A DNA stretch of 32,000 bases, taken from positions 5,523-37,522 of the forward strand of contig CAZECW010000003.1 in NCBI GenBank assembly GCA_964510585.1, written 5' to 3'. Shown here piece by piece: positions 1,096 through 27,839 of this stretch. The translations under genes and the position numbers were made by a program. The DNA is from an uncultured archaeon (GTDB lineage Archaea > Asgardarchaeota > Jordiarchaeia > Jordiarchaeales > Jordiarchaeaceae). A model generated the notes under the pieces. That model had not been told where the DNA came from and searched no databases. It saw nothing but the letters and a program-made list of their open reading frames with translations. Positions within the stretch are counted from its first letter, which is position 1. Each line of letters starts with the position of its first letter.

Positions 1096-3645
1096 TTGGT
1101 GAAAAAATATAACGCAGTGACACAGATGGACTTATATAATGTTTTAGGCCACCCTCTCAGAAGAAAAATCCTCCTATTATTAGAAAAAGAGGGTTACATG
1201 CAGTACTCAGATCTTCTCAAGGAGCTCAACATTGAAACAACGGGACAGTTGAATTTTCACCTCACAAAGCTGGGGAACCTAATTACCAAAGAGGGAAAGG
1301 CTTACAAGCTCTCGGAAGAAGGAAAAACGGTCATCAAAATAATGGAGTTAAATGAGAAGATTCTCTCAGGTGAAGAGATAGAAAGAATCGAGTCTCGAAA
1401 AACTGAGTTAAGCCGCGTGGGGATACTTATCTGTACCTGTGGTTCAGAGATTGAGCAGTCAATTAGTGTTGAGGCTTTGAAGAACCGTGTGTCTCGCATA
1501 AATAATGTGGTGTCCGTTGCGGTTTTTGATAATCTTTGTCAGGAGAAGAATCAGAAGAAGATTCAGAAATGGTTTAAGGACAATTTCATAAATAAGGTGG
1601 TTATTGCTGCCTGCAGTCCTCGTACGCACTCTCATATATTTAACCGCATATTTGAGAATCTTATACCCATAACAAACATTGATTTTGCTAATATTAGGGA
1701 GCAATTATGCTGGGTGAATTCTAAAAAGCCTGTTGAAGCCTTGGAAAAAGCGGGGTTACTCATTGAGGCTGCTGTGGAGAGGGTTATCCTTCAAAGAGAG
1801 ATTAAAACCAAAACTGTTGAGGTTCAAAAAAGCGTGGCTGTTATTGGTGGGGGCATTGCGGGTATGAATTTGGCTTTAAAGTTGGCGGAGGCCGGGTTGA
1901 AAGTTTATCTTATTGAAAAGTCGCCTACTCTGGGGGGGAAGGTTGCAAGGTGGAGCAAGATTGAGGGCGTCCTAGACTGCGCATCCTGTTTCCTCTCGGA
2001 ACAGATTCTGTATTTGGTGCAGGAGAAAAATATTGAGATTCTCACCAATACTGAAATTCTATCCGTTTCTGGAAATGCGGGGAACTTCACCATTGAATTG
2101 GTTCGCAAGCCACGTTACGTGGATGAAAATAAGTGTACTGGTTGTAAACGGTGTATGAGTATATGCACTATTACTAAGAAAAACGAGTATGAGTACGGTT
2201 TGGATGAGAGGAAGCTAATCTACATTCCCTTTGTTCAGGCCTATCCTTATGCGGCGACCATAGATGAGGAGGATATTGAGAAATGTAGAGAATGCCGGGT
2301 CTGTGAAAGAGCCTGTCTAAATAAAGCCATAAATCTGGATCAGAAGCCTACAACAATGACCATAAAGGTTGGGGCAAAAGTTCTGGCAATTGGCTCCGAC
2401 CTTTACCAAGACTTAAAGCTTTATAATCATAACCCGCGTTGGGACATCGTCACCTCTGCGGAGTTTGAGAGAATTCTTGCCTCTGACGGTCCCACACAGG
2501 GCAATCTTGTAAAACTTTCTGATGGCAAGGCGCCGCAAAAAATTGTAATTATTCAGGGTGTGGGCGATTACAGTCTTAGTTCCGATTACTGTTACATACT
2601 GTCCAGAAAGTATCTAGAAGCGATTCGGGAGAAGCTTCCCAGCTGCGAAGTTAAAGTTTTTATAGAGAACAGTAAGAGCGCTGCAAATAGGTTGGCACTC
2701 GCTAACCTGCCGGAAACTGTTCATACTGGCAAAGTATTAGGGATAAAAGTGGAGGGCGAAAGGAAAGTGATAAGTACTGAGAGGGGAGACTTTGAATCAG
2801 ACATGGTTATTCTAAACATAGGTATGGTTCCAAGTAGGGAGCTGGCTGAGCTTCGCAAAACTTTGGATTTCGCTTTTGATGATAAGGGTTTTATGTCCAA
2901 AGAGACACTGAGCTCAGGGATTTTTGGGTGTGGGACTGTTACCGGGCCTAAAGATTATCACACGGCTATAGCGGAATCTAATGAAGTAGCTCTTCAAATA
3001 ATTTCTCTATTATCAAGGGATTATTTACTTGCAGACATTAGCGGTATAGATATTGACTATGATAAGTGTGGTTTATGCGGTTTGTGTATGTCTGTCTGCC
3101 CCTTTAACGCTATATCCTGTGAAGACGACAGGATTACCATTGACGATTTCAAGTGTAAGGGCTGCGGAGTCTGCGTAAGCATTTGCCCCACAAAGGCATT
3201 GGAGATGAATGTGATAACAAGAGAAAAGATTCTCAGATCCATAGAAGTTTATAGCAAGTATAGCCACAAACCCAAAATTATGGCTTTTTGCTGTGAGCAT
3301 TGCGGGTATGCGGCGGCGGATGAGGCGGGCCTAAGGAAAATACAGTACCATCCCAATATTTTCGTTGAAATGGTTCCCTGTACTGGTAGAGTGGACACCG
3401 AGTTTATTTTAAAGGCGTTGGAAAAAGGATTCGATGGGGTGCTAGTTGTAGGGTGTAAGTATGGCTCATGCAGGTACATAGATGGAATCAACAAGTTGGA
3501 GAAAAAAATCAAAATACTGAAAGATGTGGGAATTCCCCAAATAGAGGATAGACTGGTTCTTTCATCGCTAAACGCGGTGGAAGGCTACAGGTTCGCAGAG
3601 ATAGTGAACCTAATGCAGAATAAATTGTCGGAGATGATGATGTGA
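1096..3645 (+). CDS. hdrA: Fusion protein: N-terminal winged HTH (ArsR-like) + HdrA-like FAD/Fe-S protein + C-terminal MvhD [2Fe-2S] domain
   Basis: HTH: LGHPLRRKILLLL...YSDLLKEL...GQLNFHLTKL. HdrA N-domain: ICTCG, AACSPRTH, ANIREQ. FAD motif GGGIAG, DCASC, inserted ferredoxin CTGCKRCMSIC/CRECRVCERAC, GPKD, second ferredoxin CGLCGLCMSVCP/CKGCGVCVSICP. MvhD: FCCEHCGYAAAD, PCTGRVD, GCKYGSCRY. Start uncertain (1096 TTG, 1099 GTG or 1126 ATG). Confidence 0.9.
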   Translation: MVKKYNAVTQMDLYNVLGHPLRRKILLLLEKEGYMQYSDLLKELNIETTGQLNFHLTKLGNLITKEGKAYKLSEEGKTVIKIMELNEKILSGEEIERIESRKTELSRVGILICTCGSEIEQSISVEALKNRVSRINNVVSVAVFDNLCQEKNQKKIQKWFKDNFINKVVIAACSPRTHSHIFNRIFENLIPITNIDFANIREQLCWVNSKKPVEALEKAGLLIEAAVERVILQREIKTKTVEVQKSVAVIGGGIAGMNLALKLAEAGLKVYLIEKSPTLGGKVARWSKIEGVLDCASCFLSEQILYLVQEKNIEILTNTEILSVSGNAGNFTIELVRKPRYVDENKCTGCKRCMSICTITKKNEYEYGLDERKLIYIPFVQAYPYAATIDEEDIEKCRECRVCERACLNKAINLDQKPTTMTIKVGAKVLAIGSDLYQDLKLYNHNPRWDIVTSAEFERILASDGPTQGNLVKLSDGKAPQKIVIIQGVGDYSLSSDYCYILSRKYLEAIREKLPSCEVKVFIENSKSAANRLALANLPETVHTGKVLGIKVEGERKVISTERGDFESDMVILNIGMVPSRELAELRKTLDFAFDDKGFMSKETLSSGIFGCGTVTGPKDYHTAIAESNEVALQIISLLSRDYLLADISGIDIDYDKCGLCGLCMSVCPFNAISCEDDRITIDDFKCKGCGVCVSICPTKALEMNVITREKILRSIEVYSKYSHKPKIMAFCCEHCGYAAADEAGLRKIQYHPNIFVEMVPCTGRVDTEFILKALEKGFDGVLVVGCKYGSCRYIDGINKLEKKIKILKDVGIPQIEDRLVLSSLNAVEGYRFAEIVNLMQNKLSEMMM

Positions 3646-4400
3646 AACTAAAATTTTCAGCAATCTCCCTTAACTCTTGCAACGGTTGCATCTCCACCCT
3701 TACCTGTCTAGATGTTTTCCTCAACCTTGTAAAATCCGCGGAAATAGTATACTTCCCCTTTGTTGAGGACTCCTACCCCGCCACAATAAAGGAAGACGAA
3801 GAACTAAAATATTCTGACGTTACCCTTGTTGAGGGATGTGTTACCCAGAAGGATGAAGAAATATTACTGAAAAAGCTGCGAAAAGCATCCAAAAAAATAA
3901 TTGCACTCGGCGCCTGCGCTATGTTTGGGGGGATAGAAAGCCTATCACAGAATGCTCGAAGGGACCCTCTCTCTAAAATCATAGAAATCGATGGATGTAT
4001 ACCGGGTTGCCCCCCACCTGAAAATGTTCTGGGAGCATCTATACTTTCACTAATTGAGGGCAGGAATCTTCCCGAAGCAAGCAGGAATCTCTGTGCAGTT
4101 TGCGATTTGAGGCCCAAACTGGAAAAATTCAAAACAATCCGTATAGAGAAATTACAACCCCAAAAGTTTCCCACCAGCTGTTTCCTCGACGAAAACGTGC
4201 TCTGTTTAGGTCCGGTGACCCGTGAAGGATGCGATGCAAAGTGTATCAAAGTGGGGCTGCCCTGTGAGGGGTGTATGGGGCCTCCCAACGGTTTAGACTA
4301 TACTGCTAATGTAATCAACTTCCTCTCAACACTGGAATTATCAGAAAAGTTGAGAACTTATGAAGGAATTATTTTTAGGCTTCGCCGCCCAAGGACGTGA
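3642..4400 (+). CDS. mvhG: [NiFe] hydrogenase small subunit, MvhG/group 3 type
   Basis: SCNGC, EG, GACAMFGG, IPGCPP, CAVC, CFL, CLGPVTREGCDAKC, PCEGCMG; no Tat leader. GTG start overlaps the upstream TGA. Confidence 0.88.
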   Translation: MKLKFSAISLNSCNGCISTLTCLDVFLNLVKSAEIVYFPFVEDSYPATIKEDEELKYSDVTLVEGCVTQKDEEILLKKLRKASKKIIALGACAMFGGIESLSQNARRDPLSKIIEIDGCIPGCPPPENVLGASILSLIEGRNLPEASRNLCAVCDLRPKLEKFKTIRIEKLQPQKFPTSCFLDENVLCLGPVTREGCDAKCIKVGLPCEGCMGPPNGLDYTANVINFLSTLELSEKLRTYEGIIFRLRRPRT

Positions 4401-4406
4401 AATGGA

Positions 4407-5738
4407 ATGAAGAAAATTATTGAACCGGTTACAAGAATTGAGGGACACGGGAAAATAACAGTATACCTTAATGATAAGGAAGTCTCCAACGCTAATTTTG
4501 ACATGTATCTACCTCGAGGATTCGAAAAAATTTTAGTGGGAAAATTGGTGGAAGATGTTCCCAGAATCACATCCCGAATATGTGGACTCTGCTCCTCAGC
4601 ACACGCAATAGCAGCCTGCAAAGCATTGGAAAAAATATATGACGTTACCCCATCTAAATCCTCCATTCTTATGAGAAAACTCCTCCTTGCCGGAGAGCTT
4701 ATAAGATCCCATGCATTGCACTTCTTTTACTTTGCACTTCCCGACCTAAAAGCATTGATAGAAAATGATTATGAAAGGTATAGTGTCCAACAGTTCTCAA
4801 AAATAGAAACAGACCTAGTTGAAAAATTGTTCAGAGTAATTAGAATTGGAAATGAGCTCCTAGACCGCATTGGGGGAAGGGTACCCCACCCAGTAACCAG
4901 CGTAGTGGGCGGAATCTCTAAAAAATTAACAGAAAAAGAAGTGGTAGGACTACAGTCTAACCTTAGAAGAGGCGCCAGCACAGTGAGAGGAATAATAGAG
5001 AAACTATTAGAGTACATGGGTAAGATTGGTGAGCCGCAAGAATTCTTCAACATGGACGAAACAGCATTTATGGCACTAAATGAAGGCGGCAACTTCAACC
5101 TATATGAAGGAAAACTCCGCATCACCAAAGAAAAAAAGATTCTGGCAGACTTCGAACCAGAACAATACACCAAATACATAGAAATTGAGAAAAAATCACA
5201 GGGAATCCAAATTAAACTTAACGGAGAAAAGCTAGTATTAACCGGGCCCATGGCCAGAAACCAAATAATCGAGAGATACGGGGCCTACGAAGTACACAGC
5301 TTGATGGAAGAAGTGCCCACCAGCTGGAAGGAAAGCCTTCTTTACTCAAACTTTCTCAGACTCATAGAAATACTTGCCTCGATATACGATGCAATACTCA
5401 TACTCAACGAGCCAGAACTAATGGAAGAACGAGAACTTCCCCAACTCAACAAAATCGCCACACCAATAGGCATCGGAGTGGTAGAAGCACCCAGAGGAAC
5501 ACTAATACACCAGTACAAAGTAAACACTAAAAACACAGTTGAATCAGCAACCATCATCACCCCCACAGAACTCAACCTCCCCACCATCAACCAAAAATTA
5601 CTAGAAACATGCAGAGACAGCTACCAAAACACACAAAACATAGAGAAACTAAAAGAAAACGCAAAAAGAGTCATAAGAACATTCGACCCCTGCGTCTCAT
5701 GCGCAACCCACCTAATCGTCAAAATAATCCACCAATAA
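4407..5738 (+). CDS. mvhA: [NiFe] hydrogenase large subunit, MvhA/group 3c-like
   Basis: TRIEGHG, L1 RICGLCSSAH, EAPRGTLIH, L2 DPCVSCATH plus an 8-aa C-terminal extension. The subgroup call rests on the adjacent MvhD and HdrA domains. Confidence 0.9.
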   Translation: MKKIIEPVTRIEGHGKITVYLNDKEVSNANFDMYLPRGFEKILVGKLVEDVPRITSRICGLCSSAHAIAACKALEKIYDVTPSKSSILMRKLLLAGELIRSHALHFFYFALPDLKALIENDYERYSVQQFSKIETDLVEKLFRVIRIGNELLDRIGGRVPHPVTSVVGGISKKLTEKEVVGLQSNLRRGASTVRGIIEKLLEYMGKIGEPQEFFNMDETAFMALNEGGNFNLYEGKLRITKEKKILADFEPEQYTKYIEIEKKSQGIQIKLNGEKLVLTGPMARNQIIERYGAYEVHSLMEEVPTSWKESLLYSNFLRLIEILASIYDAILILNEPELMEERELPQLNKIATPIGIGVVEAPRGTLIHQYKVNTKNTVESATIITPTELNLPTINQKLLETCRDSYQNTQNIEKLKENAKRVIRTFDPCVSCATHLIVKIIHQ

Positions 5739-8558: not shown

Positions 8559-11264
8559 TTATGTTGGGAAGGCTGTTTTTATTTCTTCGTAGAGTTCGGG
8601 GAAGCTGTTTAACCATTCTTTTCTTTCTTTTTTGAGTTGTTGAACCATTTCTTCTATTTGCTCAATGCTGTACCACCTTTCTAGTTTAAATTTTTCCATG
8701 TCTACGCCTTCCACCTCTTTGGGCACTAATGTGCCGAAGTATGGTTCGGGTATCCACTCTATGTTGTTTCTGGCTATGCCTCGGATTATGGAGGCCATTT
8801 CTTTTATCTGGATTCGTTCCACTTTTCTCTTAATTATGCTTATTCCTTCTTCATTTACTTCTCTAAGTTCTCCCACTCCACCGGTGTTTATAAGGTAGCA
8901 CTGCACCTTGTCTCCCAGTCCTTTTAGTATTTCGTAGAACCTGTTTCCCTCTTGGCCTTTGCTTCCCACTATGAAGGGATTTGTTCCTACTTCGCGTACT
9001 GACTGTCCTGCTCTTTTGGGGTCGCTTCCCGAACTTTCAATTGATTCTCCAAGCATGAATGCGGCTGCGGCTTGTTCAATGGTTAGTTTGGATGCTATTG
9101 GTACTACGGTGTTTCTTCTGGTAATCATTAGGACTATTAGTCCGTCGACGTCTTTTAGGGGAGGGAGGTTAACTGAGGGGCTTTTGTACTTTCCAAAGTC
9201 GTCTCTCTGCATTATTCCGCGTCCGTTGCCTGTGAGTATGTCGCTTTCAAATAGCACGTTTCCCTTGTAGTCCACCATAACGTTTTCCAGTATAGCGCTG
9301 GGTTTGGTCACCGCATTGTAGATTAGGGGCTGTATTTCTGGGTTTAGGTCTTCTGTTTTTAGGTAGAATCCTCTCTCGGTTCCTAGGGCTGAGCCGTCTG
9401 GTCTTAGTGCTACGAAGTCGTCTTGTACTATTTCGATTCCCTCACCATCTGCTTCGTTAAGGTCGTGGGTGTGGCAGCTGTGGGTGGTTTTACCTGTTGC
9501 GGTGAGTCCGAATATTAGCGTATTGTACGTTTTTATTTTTCCCGTTTTGGCATCTCTTGCTCTTATGATTTTTGCTCCGGCGTGTAATCCGAGCATTCCC
9601 TGCTGTTTGGCGAACCACATGGCCATTCTCAAGAAGCCCTTTTTAGCCTCGCCGTAATAGTCGGTTCCCAGAATGAATGTTACTCCAATTTCTGGAAATA
9701 CTATTATTTGTCGGTCCTTTTCCTGCCATTCTGGAATGTAAACTATGTATAGGTGGGGGCCGTTATAGTTTTCTTTTGGGTCGAATAGTGTTTGGTTGAC
9801 CATGTGGGCCAGCCTAATCATTTCTCCCCTGTGTACGGAGACGTAGAGGGTGCATCTGGGTGTGAAGTAGGGGTTATCTCCCATGGTGCGGTCAGTGCAC
9901 ACAAATGGTGCGCTCTTAATGTATTGGAGGACGTCGCTCATTGTTTTGGGTAGGTTTTTCATAAGTTCCTTCTGTTTGGGGCTCATCTCGTATTGGACTA
10001 CTTCTGGGCTTCCCACGATTATGGTTAGGCCTGCGCTTCTGTTTTTCACGGTGGAGACGAAATTATAGTTGTTGAACTTTGTTTTGGTGCCATAGGCTTC
10101 CGCCATCTCCCTGATTTTTTGTTCTGATAGGTGTTTAACATTGCTTCTATTGTAGAGCTTTTCCACGGCTTGCCTTATTTCGTTTAGGTCTATTTGGGAG
10201 ATGATTTCGTCAATTTCGGCTTTTGCCCTCTCCTTTTCTTCTATTAATGGTTCGAGATATTCTTTGGTGGTAATTATTCTTCTTACTTCCTTTTGCATTT
10301 CCAAAAGGGGATGGGCTAAATTCAGGTAGTATACCGCTGCGAATTTGAAAATATTCTTGTAAAATTCAATTTCAAGCTTTTCTCGCTTACTGCTCCGTAC
10401 CATTAGGTAGGGATTGAAGAATGGCTGCTGGGAATGTGTGAGAATCTTTATGGCTTCCTGTGGGGTGAGACGCTTAGCAATTCTTGGATCCTTGCGATAA
10501 TTTACAAGTAGAAAAATGAGCTTAATACGGGTGGTGTCCACATATTTTTCATTTCCACCTATCCACCAAGGGTCGAGCATAAAGTGGTTATTTTCCTTTT
10601 TGCTTTTTTCGTATAGTGCCTGGAGTCTTGGATAAATTTTTATGAGTTCTTTTTTTAGGAAGAATTTTCTCTCAGAGACCGATGTAGATATGCGCCCCTT
10701 TTCTCCACCAAGTTGCTCCACATATATTATGTCGTCTGAGTGTATTCTGGCTCTATCCATCTCTAAAAGGAGGAATGCATTTGTGCTGACTCCCCGCCCA
10801 GTTTCACCCATGAAGGCTACGCCCTCACCATTAATGTCTACCAGACTACCCCTCAGAAAGTTTAATCTCTCCTGTTCCTCGCAGACATCAGCAACAATCC
10901 CTAGGGCTAATGCCCGAACAAATTCATAGTTTCCAATATTGAATACTATTCCTGTTTTGGTTTCAGAGTTGTAATATATTCCGGGAGGCTCGTCGTAAAG
11001 TCCAGTAGCTGCATATATTACTCCGTGGGGGCGAAGGTTGCGGTCTATGGCTGCGGGGAACCAGTTTTCTCTCCAAAAATCATCTAAATGGGGTTCGTTG
11101 GTTCTCAATTGAATTATGTAGCCGTTTATGTTTGCGTTCCAAACGTAAATAGAATCGTAACCCATATGCCTCTCTGCTTTTTGAACCAATTCTTCCCTTT
11201 TCTCACGAGAGATTCCTACGTCGATAACGCCTTTCTTTCCGGGAACCTGCTCCATTTCAACCAT
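8559..11264 (-). CDS. pckA: Phosphoenolpyruvate carboxykinase (ATP-type) with an extra N-terminal HPr-kinase/PEPCK-like domain
   Basis: C-terminal part: GTDYYGEAKKG, GLHAGAK, P-loop FGLTATGKTT, QDD, TERGFYLKT, ENV, NGR, YLINTG. Start 11264 chosen from GAGGAG spacing (ORF is open from 11306). Confidence 0.85.
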   Translation of the reverse strand: MVEMEQVPGKKGVIDVGISREKREELVQKAERHMGYDSIYVWNANINGYIIQLRTNEPHLDDFWRENWFPAAIDRNLRPHGVIYAATGLYDEPPGIYYNSETKTGIVFNIGNYEFVRALALGIVADVCEEQERLNFLRGSLVDINGEGVAFMGETGRGVSTNAFLLLEMDRARIHSDDIIYVEQLGGEKGRISTSVSERKFFLKKELIKIYPRLQALYEKSKKENNHFMLDPWWIGGNEKYVDTTRIKLIFLLVNYRKDPRIAKRLTPQEAIKILTHSQQPFFNPYLMVRSSKREKLEIEFYKNIFKFAAVYYLNLAHPLLEMQKEVRRIITTKEYLEPLIEEKERAKAEIDEIISQIDLNEIRQAVEKLYNRSNVKHLSEQKIREMAEAYGTKTKFNNYNFVSTVKNRSAGLTIIVGSPEVVQYEMSPKQKELMKNLPKTMSDVLQYIKSAPFVCTDRTMGDNPYFTPRCTLYVSVHRGEMIRLAHMVNQTLFDPKENYNGPHLYIVYIPEWQEKDRQIIVFPEIGVTFILGTDYYGEAKKGFLRMAMWFAKQQGMLGLHAGAKIIRARDAKTGKIKTYNTLIFGLTATGKTTHSCHTHDLNEADGEGIEIVQDDFVALRPDGSALGTERGFYLKTEDLNPEIQPLIYNAVTKPSAILENVMVDYKGNVLFESDILTGNGRGIMQRDDFGKYKSPSVNLPPLKDVDGLIVLMITRRNTVVPIASKLTIEQAAAAFMLGESIESSGSDPKRAGQSVREVGTNPFIVGSKGQEGNRFYEILKGLGDKVQCYLINTGGVGELREVNEEGISIIKRKVERIQIKEMASIIRGIARNNIEWIPEPYFGTLVPKEVEGVDMEKFKLERWYSIEQIEEMVQQLKKERKEWLNSFPELYEEIKTAFPT

Positions 11265-11527
11265 TCTCATTACTCCTCGGACAGGACATCCTAGCCCACA
11301 AGTCAATACGTTTTTTTTCAGATACCAAGTTAACTACACCTTTTTATAGGTTTTCATTGTATGGCTGTTAGGGTCTCGAAGGTAGGCATTTATTTGTTAA
11401 AAATGATTCTAATTTACCGCCATTTTTATCTTTTTATGTTAAAATTAAGGTTTCGGGTATTATTTTTATACTTCTTTGTTCAATTCTAATATTGCCCTTG
11501 CAAAATTTTTCCAGTGACCCTAAAGGA

Positions 11528-25087: not shown

Positions 25088-26305
25088 TCAAATTTTAAAC
25101 AAGTCCACTATGTCCAAAACTGGTATGCCCTCTTTTTCTGCCACTAAGCGCAGGTTGTTCTCACAGAAGGGGCACACAGTCACAATATAATCTACTCCCA
25201 CCTCTTTTGCGTCCTCCACCCTCACCCGCGCAATTTTTTCAGCGAGATTCGGGAACGCTGATTTTACCCCTCCACCCGCTCCACAGCACCAAGCAGCGGT
25301 TCGATTACGTTTCATCTCAATAAACTCTAAGCCGGGCACCTTTTTTATTATTTCGCGAGGCGGCTCATAAAAATCGCAGTGACGACCAAGGTGGCAAGGA
25401 TCATGATAGGTTACTTTCCTATTTTTGAAATCCTCCCTAAATTCCAGCTTCCCCTCCGCCAGTAGTCGATTTAGAATTTCGGTTATGTGAACCACCTTGA
25501 AGGGCAACTCTTTTCCGTAAATATCGGGATAGTCTTTTTTGAGGGTCCGATAGCATCCTGCACAGTGAACAACCACCTCTTTTGCACCAGCGTCTTGTAA
25601 CGCCTTTATATTATGTAAGGCAAGCTCCTCTGCCAGGCTACGCATACCCGTTCTAAGCGCTACTGAGCCGCAGCAGTACTCTTCAGGATGTATCAAAGCA
25701 GGCCGCACCCCCGCAGAGAGCAGTAGCTTTATAGTTTTTCGGATGATTTCTGGTTGCCTGTAAGGTTCGGTGCACCCCATAAAGAACACAAGCTCGCCCC
25801 TAGACGGCAAATCAACCCCCTCCGGCATCCAGACAATCCTATCCTTATGCAGTTCCATGTAGGGATTATGCTCCTTTTTGCACCACTCCAAAATTTCCCT
25901 GTGTCGAGTCATAGGCCCGTAACCCGCATCAACCAAGTCAGCCCTCAACGCCTCGTAAATCTTGGTGTGATCCAAATATTTTCCTATGCTAAGGTTAATA
26001 TTTGGATCCATAGATTGGTGGCATGTTGCGTGGCAGTCTCCACACGTAGTGCACTGGTATATAACGTTGGCTAATTCCTGGCTGAGCTTCAGTCTTCCCT
26101 CGATGAGCCCGCGCACTATCTGCATTTTTCCACGTGCAAAGAAGGGCTCGAAACCTGGAGTGTGTTCCAGCACTGGGCAAACCTTGTATCTGCCAACAGT
26201 GTATCTCACCGCAATGCGGCAGTCACCGCAGGCAATGCAGCCATATAAGATGTCTCCTAGTTTTTTGAGGTGTCTCAGTTTCCCGATTTCTTGAGTATTA
26301 GTCAT
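25088..26305 (-). CDS. Fe-S oxidoreductase subunit with two CCG domains (HdrD/GlcF/GlpC-like)
   Basis: CIACGDC...CP, CTTCGDCHATC, FFMGC, CCGS, CAGC, YHDPCHLGR, CCGAGGG, VCPFC. Confidence 0.9.
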   Translation of the reverse strand: MTNTQEIGKLRHLKKLGDILYGCIACGDCRIAVRYTVGRYKVCPVLEHTPGFEPFFARGKMQIVRGLIEGRLKLSQELANVIYQCTTCGDCHATCHQSMDPNINLSIGKYLDHTKIYEALRADLVDAGYGPMTRHREILEWCKKEHNPYMELHKDRIVWMPEGVDLPSRGELVFFMGCTEPYRQPEIIRKTIKLLLSAGVRPALIHPEEYCCGSVALRTGMRSLAEELALHNIKALQDAGAKEVVVHCAGCYRTLKKDYPDIYGKELPFKVVHITEILNRLLAEGKLEFREDFKNRKVTYHDPCHLGRHCDFYEPPREIIKKVPGLEFIEMKRNRTAAWCCGAGGGVKSAFPNLAEKIARVRVEDAKEVGVDYIVTVCPFCENNLRLVAEKEGIPVLDIVDLFKI

Positions 26306-26306
26306 T

Positions 26307-27809
26307 TTACTCCTCCTCTGCGCTGTAGAAGTGGAATTTTCCCGGACTCAAAAGAAAATTGGGGTCAAGGGTTCTCTTCACATCTTTAAAGAATTTGGTA
26401 AACTTGGGTGGAAAGGCATTTGCCTCCATTATGGCTTGACTTATGACTTCTCCCAGCCAGTAGTGTACTCCACCATATTTCACTTGGAAGCGTAGCCTCT
26501 CCTTCCACAGCTTTAGGTTGGTCTCTCTCATTTCGGGCTTGTTCCAACCACTCATCCCTCCCACGATTACACACTCTCCCCTAGGCATCATATACACCAC
26601 GGCTGCAGTGACTGAGGCAACTGTGGCGCTTGAATACTCCCCCAGCTTTTGCAGAGTATGCTCATCAGATGTTCTAAAGACTTCAGGCATCTGGTCTAAG
26701 GGAACCTTGTGACAAGTGGTGCAACTGAAGTGGCCCGGAAGCACACCAAACACTCCATGAAAATACTGCCAATGCCCCTGCTTTTTCCCCACCCACTCCG
26801 CAATGTTTCCCTCCCTGATGGTGGGGCCGAGTTCCGTAACACCCGGCTTTGCAAATTCTTCGTGGACAATGTCACTTGCCAATTCAAACATCCTCTCATC
26901 ATCAGCCTCAATTCCCACCAACATCACTGGTTTCATCAGCAACATATCCTTCCAAGGCTTAATAACATCAGTCAAAGAATAAAGCATAACTACAGCAGAG
27001 GGAGTCAAAGTAATATCAGAAATCCCCCAACTGCACTTACACTGAAGCGAATGGGTAACCTTAACGACGAACTCATAGTCCTCAGGCACAGTAAACGTGA
27101 ATCCCTCTCTGTACTCAGGTAGCGGATAAATCTTCATCACCGCCTTGGTTTTAATACCCATAGTACCCACGTCACCCATAAAAAGACCCGTAAAATCTGG
27201 CCCCATACCCCACCTGGTAAACGGTTTCTTCACATACCTGCTCGAACCAGAACCAGTAACTATGACGTCGCCATCCGGATTTGGAAGAACCACTTCTACG
27301 CCTATGCAGTTTTCAGAAACCGGACCGTACTTCGTTGATCCAAAACCAATAGTGTTATTTGAAAGTCCACCACCAATAGTGGCACTCATACCAGAACCCG
27401 GCCCCTCCACACCAGTGGTATAACCTCTCTTGTGAAGGAACTCTATAAGTTCCCCCCAAGTAATGCCACACTCCACTACAACATTTCCAACATCTTCATT
27501 TATTTCAACCACTCTATTCATACGTGTAAGATCGATGACGATGCCTCCCTCCACTATTGGTTTTGAACCGCCGACAAGGTCTGCTCCTCCGCCCCTGGGA
27601 ACCATTGGAATTTTATATTTGTTCGCTACTCTAACAATGTGTGAAACCTCCTCTGTTGTTCCCGGGCGCACAACTATATCCGGCCAACGGTCAGGCAAAG
27701 CGGGATCCACATTTCGGGAGTAGGCTTGTCTAACAAAATCTTGGTTAGAGACGTAATCCGCTCCCAACACATCTTCCAGTTCCCTATACGCCTTTTCTGT
27801 AGCTGACAA
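26307..27809 (-). CDS. FAD-binding oxidoreductase (VAO/PCMH-GlcD superfamily)
   Basis: PDIVVRPGTTEEV, PRGGGADLVGG, IDLTRMNRV, ATIGG, GVEVVLP, GTMGIKT, DPNFLLSPGK. TTG 27809 follows GGAGGT. Confidence 0.88.
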   Translation of the reverse strand: MSATEKAYRELEDVLGADYVSNQDFVRQAYSRNVDPALPDRWPDIVVRPGTTEEVSHIVRVANKYKIPMVPRGGGADLVGGSKPIVEGGIVIDLTRMNRVVEINEDVGNVVVECGITWGELIEFLHKRGYTTGVEGPGSGMSATIGGGLSNNTIGFGSTKYGPVSENCIGVEVVLPNPDGDVIVTGSGSSRYVKKPFTRWGMGPDFTGLFMGDVGTMGIKTKAVMKIYPLPEYREGFTFTVPEDYEFVVKVTHSLQCKCSWGISDITLTPSAVVMLYSLTDVIKPWKDMLLMKPVMLVGIEADDERMFELASDIVHEEFAKPGVTELGPTIREGNIAEWVGKKQGHWQYFHGVFGVLPGHFSCTTCHKVPLDQMPEVFRTSDEHTLQKLGEYSSATVASVTAAVVYMMPRGECVIVGGMSGWNKPEMRETNLKLWKERLRFQVKYGGVHYWLGEVISQAIMEANAFPPKFTKFFKDVKRTLDPNFLLSPGKFHFYSAEEE

Positions 27810-27839
27810 AAAGTTTACCTCCAAAAATTTGATTCAAAT

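Follow-up and report, generated by a model that had tools for sequence, protein, structure and literature searches.

In methanogen complexes, cluster HA4 of the HdrA subunit carries the high-potential electron from the reduced flavin adenine dinucleotide, FAD(H-), to HdrC and HdrB (PMC9012536, PMC12350162, PMC13580544), and the low-potential electron leaves via the shuttle cluster HA3 to the clusters HA5 and HA6 (PMC12350162, PMC13580544). The wiring of cluster E4 of BamE is reported to be the same as that of HA4 (bioRxiv 10.64898/2026.04.10.717634). Also described are a lysine that sits at the flavin N5 (Lys409 of the structure 5ODC) (PMC6405883, PMC13514486) and a cysteine pair of the Cys197/Cys200 type with roles in the dimer and in the transfer from MvhD to FAD (PMC9012536, PMC13580544). 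The N-terminal domain of HdrA is part of a mobile arm in the methanogen complexes (PMC12350162). Asgard genome papers annotate a group 3c hydrogenase together with HdrA as bifurcating or confurcating 'MvhADG-HdrABC', and this annotation is the basis of syntrophy and eukaryogenesis scenarios (PMC7015854, PMC11291895). Here we analysed a stretch of 32,000 nucleotides (nt) from an uncultured archaeon of the Asgardarchaeota (Jordiarchaeia; Jordiarchaeaceae), positions 5,523 to 37,522 of contig CAZECW010000003.1 in assembly GCA_964510585.1 (hereafter the window). It encodes a protein, wHTH-HdrA-MvhD, in which a winged helix-turn-helix (wHTH) domain, an HdrA-type core and an MvhD domain are fused, followed by two hydrogenase subunits. 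We show here that the HA4 ligands are lost in this protein and in its Asgard orthologs, that the surroundings of this three-gene cassette hold no HdrB-like gene and that a palindrome is conserved at its promoter. On balance we lean towards a derived, HA4-less HdrA in an HdrBC-independent hydrogenase that would regulate its own synthesis as the best explanation overall.

The HdrA-type core is complete (approximately residues 103-718) and lies between the wHTH and the MvhD/FlpD domain (728-847), and Pfam recognizes DUF7347 (12-82), Pyr_redox_2, Fer4 and FlpD (728-847) along the chain. Residue numbers are counted from the TTG at 1096 and coordinates are window positions. The features of the gene and its product are as follows.

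1126-3645, plus strand: wHTH-HdrA-MvhD gene, from the list of open reading frames (ORFs) and the translation; the probable start, ATG at 1126, gives 839 amino acids, and TTG at 1096 gives 849
1129-1365, plus strand: ArsR-like wHTH, residues 12-90 (PF24038, secondary structure in the AlphaFold2 (AF2) model; ratio of nonsynonymous to synonymous substitution rates (dN/dS) 0.026)
1840-1863, plus strand: FAD dinucleotide-binding motif IGGGIAGM, residues 249-256; G251, G253 and G256 do not vary among 34 family members
1978-1989, plus strand: Cys295/Cys298 pair, which corresponds to Cys197/Cys200 in 5ODC and to Cys202/Cys205 in M. marburgensis
2554-2595, plus strand: former HA4 [4Fe-4S] binding loop, residues 487-500, with one non-conserved Cys (C499) instead of four
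2554-2960, plus strand: second Rossmann-like half of the thioredoxin-reductase domain, remodelled, as far as GPKD; dN/dS 0.083 and 0.094
2608-2610, plus strand: K505, the FAD-N5 lysine (Lys409 of 5ODC) by alignment; invariant in the family
2644-2646, plus strand: C517, an Asgard-clade-specific Cys found in 114/121 orthologs and 0/7 paralogs
2659-2700, plus strand: shortened segment FIENSKSAANRLAL, residues 522-535, in place of YMDIRxxGKGYEEFY; the least confident part of the model
3277-3636, plus strand: fused MvhD/FlpD domain with conserved [2Fe-2S]-type Cys (PF02662, E 4e-33; MvhD chains in the PDB, E ~1e-22)

An identical protein of 839 amino acids is present in the database, and the ortholog starts match the equivalent MD(I/L)Y of wHTH-HdrA-MvhD. 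The nearest database proteins, at 87-89% identity, belong to Candidatus Jordarchaeum and the Jordarchaeaceae, and DNA matching the locus comes from hot-spring metagenomes.

A first-pass annotation of the window had claimed that one of four HA4 cysteines is kept and that the thioredoxin-reductase domain is shortened. The phmmer alignments to solved HdrA (5odc_A and 8rvu_a) bear this out with exact coordinates: opposite the canonical IQCVGSRD...YCSxxCCMY the protein reads IIQGVGDYSLSSDYCYILS, with QGVGDY starting at residue 487 (window position 2554), so that three of the four cysteines of the HdrA pattern QCVGSR...YCSxxCC are missing. Between residues 487 and 600 the alignment contains five gaps relative to solved HdrA (2, 4, 11, 3 and 8 residues; ~28 in total), one of which corresponds to the replacement of the YxDxRxxGxxxEEFY segment that the annotation had likewise pointed out. 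We aligned 121 orthologs that share 54-100% identity. The four HA4 columns carry a cysteine in 31, 0, 11 and 0 of these sequences, and C499, which is Cys in just 11 of them, is therefore not a conserved ligand. Since every member of the Asgard clade examined is in the HA4-less state, chance or sequencing error does not account for it.

A loss of ligands could be compensated nearby, and two such possibilities were considered and rejected. Residues 487-545 hold no conserved set of Cys or His that could replace the HA4 ligands; the sole conserved cysteine, C517, is isolated. C517 is also missing from the HA4-bearing wHTH relatives, as it is from all seven paralogs, and since it is confined to the HA4-less Asgard clade it arose along with the HA4 loss. 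By Rossmann topology it would lie at the start of strand beta-2, distant from the old HA4 site. Reversion to binding of nicotinamide adenine dinucleotide (phosphate), NAD(P), was the second candidate: GVGDYS slightly resembles GxGxxS, but orthologs read SVGSEN, EVGPSK or CIKPDE at this place. The AF2 model has a mean predicted local distance difference test (pLDDT) of 84, with 76 at residues 491-500 and 61-70 at residues 521-540, and its superposition on HdrA structures by Foldseek gives template modelling (TM) scores of 0.77-0.81.

Around this site, the protein has retained what the first-pass annotation listed as kept, namely GGGIAG (at 251), GPKD (at 617), the four ferredoxin motifs and the MvhD cysteines. 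The cysteines of the N-terminal cluster, the Cys295/Cys298 pair, both ferredoxin domains and MvhD are each kept in 117-121 of the 121 orthologs (97-100%); for the ligands of the N-terminal cluster and of the inserted and C-terminal ferredoxin domains together with the Cys197-type pair, the count is 120-121. All four CxxCxxCxxxC ferredoxin motifs are present, which amounts to 16 cysteines in the inserted ferredoxin domain and the C-terminal one. Each of the eight cysteines in the ferredoxin-output domain (HA5/HA6) shows 100% conservation. The FAD-binding thioredoxin-reductase fold, GxGxxG and the lysine at the flavin N5 are those of HdrA, and the lysine near FAD that the annotation had invoked corresponds by alignment to K505. 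With the close relative at locus L017 as reference, the gene has a dN/dS of 0.048, the wHTH one of 0.026 and residues 487-622 one of 0.083; for these last residues the comparison with L018 gives 0.094. Decay into a pseudogene is contradicted by these low ratios together with the conservation among orthologs. Judged from the sequences, the HA4 loss is clean, selected and selective, and the earlier proposal of repurposing rather than decay agrees with this selectivity, with purifying selection and with the single event at the base of the clade described below.

How unusual is the HA4-less state? Residues 420-650 were searched against 1.84 billion representatives, and ~147 of the best 150 (50% identity) cover the HA4 site. 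Only two of the ~147 do not have the four cysteines: the representative of the Asgard family and P0263, which has no helix-turn-helix (HTH). The same loss in HTH-less HdrA, which, had it been common, would have refuted the earlier reading, is thus rare, being confined to one cluster. QmoB-type proteins retain the four HA4 cysteines, and so do all seven full-length HdrA paralogs of the source genome. With HA4 being near-universal (145 of ~147 representatives, QmoB and the paralogs), the HA4-less Asgard clade, which is large and strongly conserved and has given up this cluster alone, is therefore a natural experiment on the role of HA4. Ten further wHTH-fused relatives all keep QC...CSxxCC, yet share the shortened loop and the deleted segment: P0128, P0294 and P0295 (clusters with members named Bathyarchaeia), P0297 (Thermoproteota), P0125, P0126, P0296, P0298 and P0299, and P0130, a partial Lokiarchaeia sequence. 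Wherever their context is readable, they stand in a three-gene cassette without hdrBC. A maximum-likelihood tree unites the wHTH-fused proteins in a single clade (Shimodaira-Hasegawa-like approximate likelihood ratio test, SH-aLRT, 100) with the HA4-less Asgard proteins as a sub-clade (SH-aLRT 99), and the tree points to a single loss of the HA4 ligands at the base of the Asgard clade. The HA4-bearing relatives already show the deletions and a cassette without hdrBC, which places the fusion and the separation from HdrBC before the loss; since these relatives keep the four cysteines, the fusion to the DNA-binding domain is independent of the loss.

Two observations from this survey stand apart. 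P0263 (locus L015) is an independent HA4-less HdrA, a 702-amino-acid HdrA-FlpD protein in which the cysteines of the N-terminal cluster are also absent; its gene has an NfnB/GltD-like, a ferredoxin-like and a methionine sulfoxide reductase gene as neighbours. Locus L030 is a contig assigned to a 'Candidatus Nanopelagicaceae bacterium' that carries an Asgard-type wHTH-HdrA-MvhD nearly identical to that of L029 and is probably mis-binned.

Directly downstream of the fusion gene follow the two hydrogenase genes.

3642-4400, plus strand: MvhG-like [NiFe] hydrogenase small subunit, 252 amino acids (PF01058), overlapping the stop codon of the wHTH-HdrA-MvhD gene
4407-5738, plus strand: MvhA-like [NiFe] hydrogenase large subunit, 443 amino acids, with intact RICGLCSSAH and DPCVSCATH

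Their motifs are those of group 3c (Mvh/Vhu-type) hydrogenases (L1 RxCGxCxxxH, L2 DPCxxCxxH, a three-cluster small subunit and MvhD), and their best NCBIfam matches are VhuA and VhuG, each under its cut-off. In 69/69 orthologous loci of Asgard species genomes, counting those whose sequence extends far enough, the small and large subunits lie directly downstream. No HdrB-like gene was found within ~6 kb of the ortholog in any of 80 loci, and neither a conserved fourth gene nor a second hdrA accompanies the cassette, whose neighbours vary between lineages. In the source genome, the nearest gene with a CCG domain (HdrB-type) lies ~21 kb from wHTH-HdrA-MvhD on the opposite strand. The seven HA4-bearing paralogs each have four of four HA4 cysteines, and six of them have a CCG-domain gene within 5 kb, whereas the HA4-less gene has none within ~20 kb; thus, the presence of HA4 tracks an HdrB-type partner. 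The source genome also has a textbook cluster on contig C20, in which hdrA (666 amino acids, HA4-bearing), mvhD, mvhG and a VhuA-type large subunit face hdrC-hdrB; the canonical MvhG encoded there and the MvhG-like subunit of the cassette share 32% identity with 12 aligned cysteines. The earlier inference that the protein probably cannot bifurcate toward HdrBC is supported by the published structures, which make HA4 the high-potential exit to HdrBC, and by the absence of an hdrB-like gene from the 80 loci. Canonical bifurcation onto the heterodisulfide is therefore probably impossible for an HA4-less complex.

The Hdr inventory of the source genome shows further peculiarities. In the C20 cluster (63000-76500, locus L096) the large subunit does not have the C-terminal DPCxxCxxH, as in split VhuA/VhuU selenoenzymes, and a gene for a small Ras/Roc-like GTPase adjoins the cluster. 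The HdrA paralogs on contigs C150 and C76 (loci L002 and L004) contain two in-frame TGA codons each, at an N-terminal CxU and at the Cys197-type position, in keeping with the selenocysteine-containing HdrA that has been reported from Asgard archaea. CCG-domain (HdrB/HdrD-type) matches are unusually numerous in the genome, 67 in ~35 ORFs, and several of its HdrA genes are in tandem or fused (contigs C188 and C76). At two orthologous loci of other lineages, L010 (Promethearchaeota) and L012 (Hodarchaeota), a cluster upstream of the cassette encodes a tandem HdrA (~1040 amino acids), FlpD and FrhB-like proteins, to which L010 adds an HdrD-like CCG protein. Elsewhere in the window, an ATP-dependent phosphoenolpyruvate carboxykinase (8559-11306, minus strand) has ~380 extra N-terminal residues with a weak HPr-kinase-C-like match at 151-202, and an HdrD/GlpC-like protein with Fer4_8 and two CCG domains (25088-26305, minus strand) is encoded just downstream of a 505-amino-acid ORF (26307-27824) and is unrelated to the cassette.

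The second unusual element is the N-terminal domain. It matches PF24038 with 49 bits (cut-off 27.6), HTH_20 and HTH_5 below cut-off, and the ArsR protein 1y0u weakly (E 0.009). In the AF2 model it folds as helix-strand-helix-helix-wing-helix, and a disordered tether (approximately residues 91-107) joins it to the N-terminal domain of HdrA. A homodimer is predicted via helices 11-23 and 78-90 with a score of 0.43, compared to 0.21 for the best control; three runs share at least 79% of the contacts, and the partner pLDDT is at least 82. When the tool was calibrated, 20 of 30 proteins with structures solved as pairs came up to this mark, as did 1 of 23 solved as single chains. The profile matches, the AF2 model and the dimer prediction together give the domain an ArsR/SmtB fold with a predicted dimer through its terminal helices; however, ArsR dimers have already been solved, and the dimer pass may merely reflect a likeness to these.

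Two palindromes lie upstream of the gene.

1028-1047, no strand assigned: palindrome TTGACAA-N6-TTGTCAA, putative operator, 98 nt upstream of the ATG
871-890, no strand assigned: second palindrome (A)TGACAA-N6-TTGTC(TT), 255 nt upstream of the ATG

GACAA-N6-TTGTC occurs twice in the entire 3.78-Mb genome, both times in the intergenic region upstream of wHTH-HdrA-MvhD. Across 75 orthologous upstream regions no hexamer is more enriched than TGACAA, seen in 55 where 11.6 are expected; its density is 5.18 per kb upstream versus 0.48 per kb in the rest of these loci. At up to two mismatches, TTGACAA-N6-TTGTCAA is found in 52% of the 75 upstream regions and in 0% of shuffles, and the enrichment is specific to the 6-nt spacing. 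Among the matches listed for four other genomes, perfect TTGAYAA-N6-TTRTCAA sites number one or two per genome and always include the cassette promoter; a scan of five other genomes with the degenerate operator at one mismatch gave 15-24 matches per genome versus 6-12 for a control pattern, which makes perfect matches alone informative. That the gene has this conserved palindrome at its own promoter speaks for autoregulation, and this evidence, drawn from upstream sequence, is separate from the HA4 loss. A wider regulon in the source genome was considered and rejected: the sole other match at up to one mismatch (C140:45922) lies inside an ORF, has a G+C-rich spacer and is probably due to chance. 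Perfect or near-perfect palindromes away from the cassette were seen in other genomes (G007:C7:118908 and G008:C168:857) and could be extra regulon members, and two extra palindromes are located 0.8-0.9 kb upstream of one cassette (G010:C151:20528-20655). Among the data sets listed for the locus, none was RNA. Two sequencing runs labelled metatranscriptomic, and flagged as probably DNA, contain contigs of a ~95%-identical relative across the operon; they show neither expression nor a transcript start.

Taken together, these data suggest the following order of events. In a first step an HdrA-MvhD protein would have been fused to an ArsR-like wHTH, the HA4 loop and the neighbouring segment would have been trimmed, and the gene would have been placed with mvhG and mvhA, without hdrBC, a state that appears to survive in Bathyarchaeia and Thermoproteota. 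In a second step, at the base of the Asgard clade, the HA4 ligands, now partner-less, would have been lost. Because the hydrogenase, the MvhD [2Fe-2S] site, the cysteine pair, FAD with its lysine, the N-terminal cluster, HA3 and HA5/HA6 are conserved, the flavin would link only H2/H+ and ferredoxin-level carriers. We infer that the complex acts as an HdrBC-independent, probably reversible H2:ferredoxin-type hydrogenase. The wHTH would dimerise on the TTGAYAA-N6-TTRTCAA operators of its own promoter according to the redox or conformational state of the enzyme, in a PutA-like manner.

A more far-reaching form of this proposal appears possible to us, and we put it forward tentatively. The Mvh-type hydrogenase/HdrA complex could be a one-component, H2-responsive transcription factor and an enzyme at once, in which the once bifurcating flavin, through the loss of HA4, serves as redox integrator and the redox-dependent swing of the arm gates a clamp of the two wHTH domains on the 20-bp operator; 'MvhADG-HdrABC' in many Asgard lineages would then be an HdrBC-independent module.

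Several points weigh against the proposed enzyme-regulator. Enzymatic activity in the wHTH-HdrA-MvhD family is predicted from sequence, FAD occupancy rests on motifs, and the Asp of GPxD varies within the family. A linear chain from H2 to ferredoxin has no obvious need of a flavin. On the side of regulation, 48% of the Asgard upstream regions are without a site (at up to two mismatches, within 300 nt), the Bathyarchaeial relative, represented by one species, showed no matching palindrome upstream, and the operator could belong to another regulator. In BamF of class II benzoyl-CoA reductase, a related enzyme, the wHTH is a protein-protein adaptor (bioRxiv 10.64898/2026.04.10.717634), which cautions against assuming DNA binding by the wHTH described here. 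Finally, the cassette large subunit is the only PF00374 match in one complete Asgard chromosome, which speaks for more than a sensor, but since this profile is blind to group 4 and [FeFe] hydrogenases, 'only hydrogenase' is true for the PF00374 family alone.

The flavin site keeps the hallmarks of a bifurcating HdrA: the FAD motifs, K505, Cys295/Cys298 and the low-potential branch are strictly conserved (PMC6405883). The complex might still bifurcate or confurcate, with a remodelled HA4 site that admits a new partner or a soluble acceptor reacting with FAD, and with the wHTH as a structural adaptor. We consider this improbable. The Asgard genome papers do assume bifurcation or confurcation for 'MvhADG-HdrABC' (PMC7015854, PMC11291895), and the altered region is itself under purifying selection (dN/dS 0.08-0.09), but the cassette is accompanied by no conserved fourth gene. 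The former HA4 loop offers no conserved NAD(P)-type GxGxxG. The clade-specific Cys517 arose alongside the HA4 loss, which favours this reading, yet Rossmann topology would place it far from where the cluster was. The subunit contact made by the wHTH of BamF (bioRxiv 10.64898/2026.04.10.717634) shows that such a domain can serve as adaptor; if the wHTH bound no DNA, however, the spacing-specific palindrome at its own promoter would be unexplained.

The first-pass annotation had taken the HA4 loss as support for a sensor role. The part of this claim that concerns regulation finds an argument in the operator palindrome, independently of HA4, while a pure sensor is opposed by the HA4-bearing wHTH relatives and by the sole PF00374 enzyme. 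Such a dedicated H2 or redox sensor, in function an archaeal counterpart of the regulatory hydrogenases, in which the hydrogenase loads a dead-end chain of flavin and Fe-S clusters whose redox state sets DNA binding and no significant flux occurs, seems to us rather unlikely, slightly more so than continued bifurcation, and it is less likely than an enzyme that is also a regulator. It draws on the removal of the exergonic outlet with HA4, which would let the flavin equilibrate with H2, on the good fit of the wHTH fusion and the conserved operator, and on the canonical Vhu/Mvh-HdrABC cluster of the source genome, which could do the metabolic work. However, no second PF00374 hydrogenase is there to do this work in the complete Asgard chromosome, and the eight fully conserved cysteines of HA5/HA6 would be needless in a pure sensor. 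The operator is essentially limited to the cassette promoter, which leaves nothing else to be controlled but the divergent neighbour, and the wHTH-fused relatives keep HA4. For cultured Lokiarchaeia, high expression or abundance of group 3c [NiFe] hydrogenase has been reported (PMC11216029), which would likewise speak against a mere sensor if that enzyme is the one of the cassette; the names Prometheoarchaeum syntrophicum MK-D1 and Lokiarchaeum ossiferum are not among the homologs and loci listed.

A heterodimer with an HA4-bearing HdrA paralog that supplies the HA4/HdrBC branch, as proposed for the tandem or heterodimeric HdrA of anaerobic methanotrophic (ANME) archaea (PMC9012536), is very improbable, for although the source genome has numerous CCG-domain genes and at least seven further full-length paralogs of HdrA, the ANME signature (N-terminal domain lost in one copy, Cys197 in the other) is absent, with the N-terminal cluster ligands and Cys295/Cys298 both kept in 121/121 orthologs, no second hdrA is conserved beside the cassette, and the palindromic operator suits a homodimer.

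The HA4-less cassette changes the reading of Asgard hydrogen metabolism: a widespread 'Mvh-Hdr' cassette comes without HdrBC, without the canonical electron route and with a DNA-binding domain and a conserved operator of its own. We searched the literature without finding an account of an HdrA that bears an HTH or winged helix, of DUF7347 or of HA4 loss. If the complex does sense and regulate, a hydrogenase would be coupled directly to transcription, a coupling for which these searches found no description either. If the one-component reading is right, Asgard archaea would tune the synthesis of their hydrogenase directly to H2 and to the ferredoxin poise.

Among known systems, methanogen HdrA (5ODC, 8RVU, 7BKB) is the closest to the core of the protein, with 30-32% identity (phmmer E 1e-93 to 1e-114) and the same order of N-terminal Fe-S domain, FAD-binding thioredoxin-reductase fold, inserted ferredoxin and C-terminal ferredoxin. 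Common to both are the FAD motif, the N5 lysine, the pair of the Cys197/200 type and five of six clusters. In contrast to methanogen HdrA, wHTH-HdrA-MvhD is without the HA4 ligands and ~28 surrounding residues, has no nearby HdrBC gene and has gained an N-terminal wHTH and a C-terminal MvhD. The NCBIfam HdrA equivalogs NF041778 and NF041891 match it with 377 and 435 bits, far under their cut-offs of 1400 and 1300. Its best NCBIfam match is to the HdrA2/VhuD-HdrA fusions (NF040770; Methanosarcina HdrA2), with which it shares the HdrA-MvhD fusion, again under the cut-off (582 bits, cut-off 1100). HdrA2 stands with hdrB2C2. Unlike these fusions, wHTH-HdrA-MvhD has a wHTH, has no HA4 and stands with mvhG and mvhA. 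By its sequence relationships the protein derives from HdrA and HdrA-MvhD fusions, but three features by which HdrA is defined are missing: HA4, the partnership with HdrBC and scores above the NCBIfam cut-offs. Its sister lineages, the wHTH-HdrA-MvhD proteins of Bathyarchaeia and Thermoproteota, have the same fusion, the shortened HA4 loop and the hdrBC-free cassette, and differ by keeping the four HA4 cysteines.

For the proposed link between enzyme and promoter, two described systems offer a comparison. The flavoenzyme PutA (proline utilisation A) of enterobacteria binds DNA with its N-terminal domain and acts as a repressor of its own operon, depending on the redox state of its flavin. The analogy is a functional one only: PutA has a ribbon-helix-helix where the protein described here has a wHTH, and the two are unrelated in fold and chemistry. 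The group 2b regulatory [NiFe] hydrogenases (HoxBC-HoxJ-HoxA) are alike in concept, in that a hydrogenase reports H2 to transcription. In these, which form another hydrogenase group, the signal passes through a histidine kinase and a response regulator that are proteins of their own, whereas here neither a HoxJ-type kinase nor a HoxA-type regulator is conserved in the cassette and the DNA-binding domain resides on the electron-transfer subunit itself. Also unlike group 2b, the hydrogenase of the cassette is Mvh-like and may be the main hydrogenase in some genomes.

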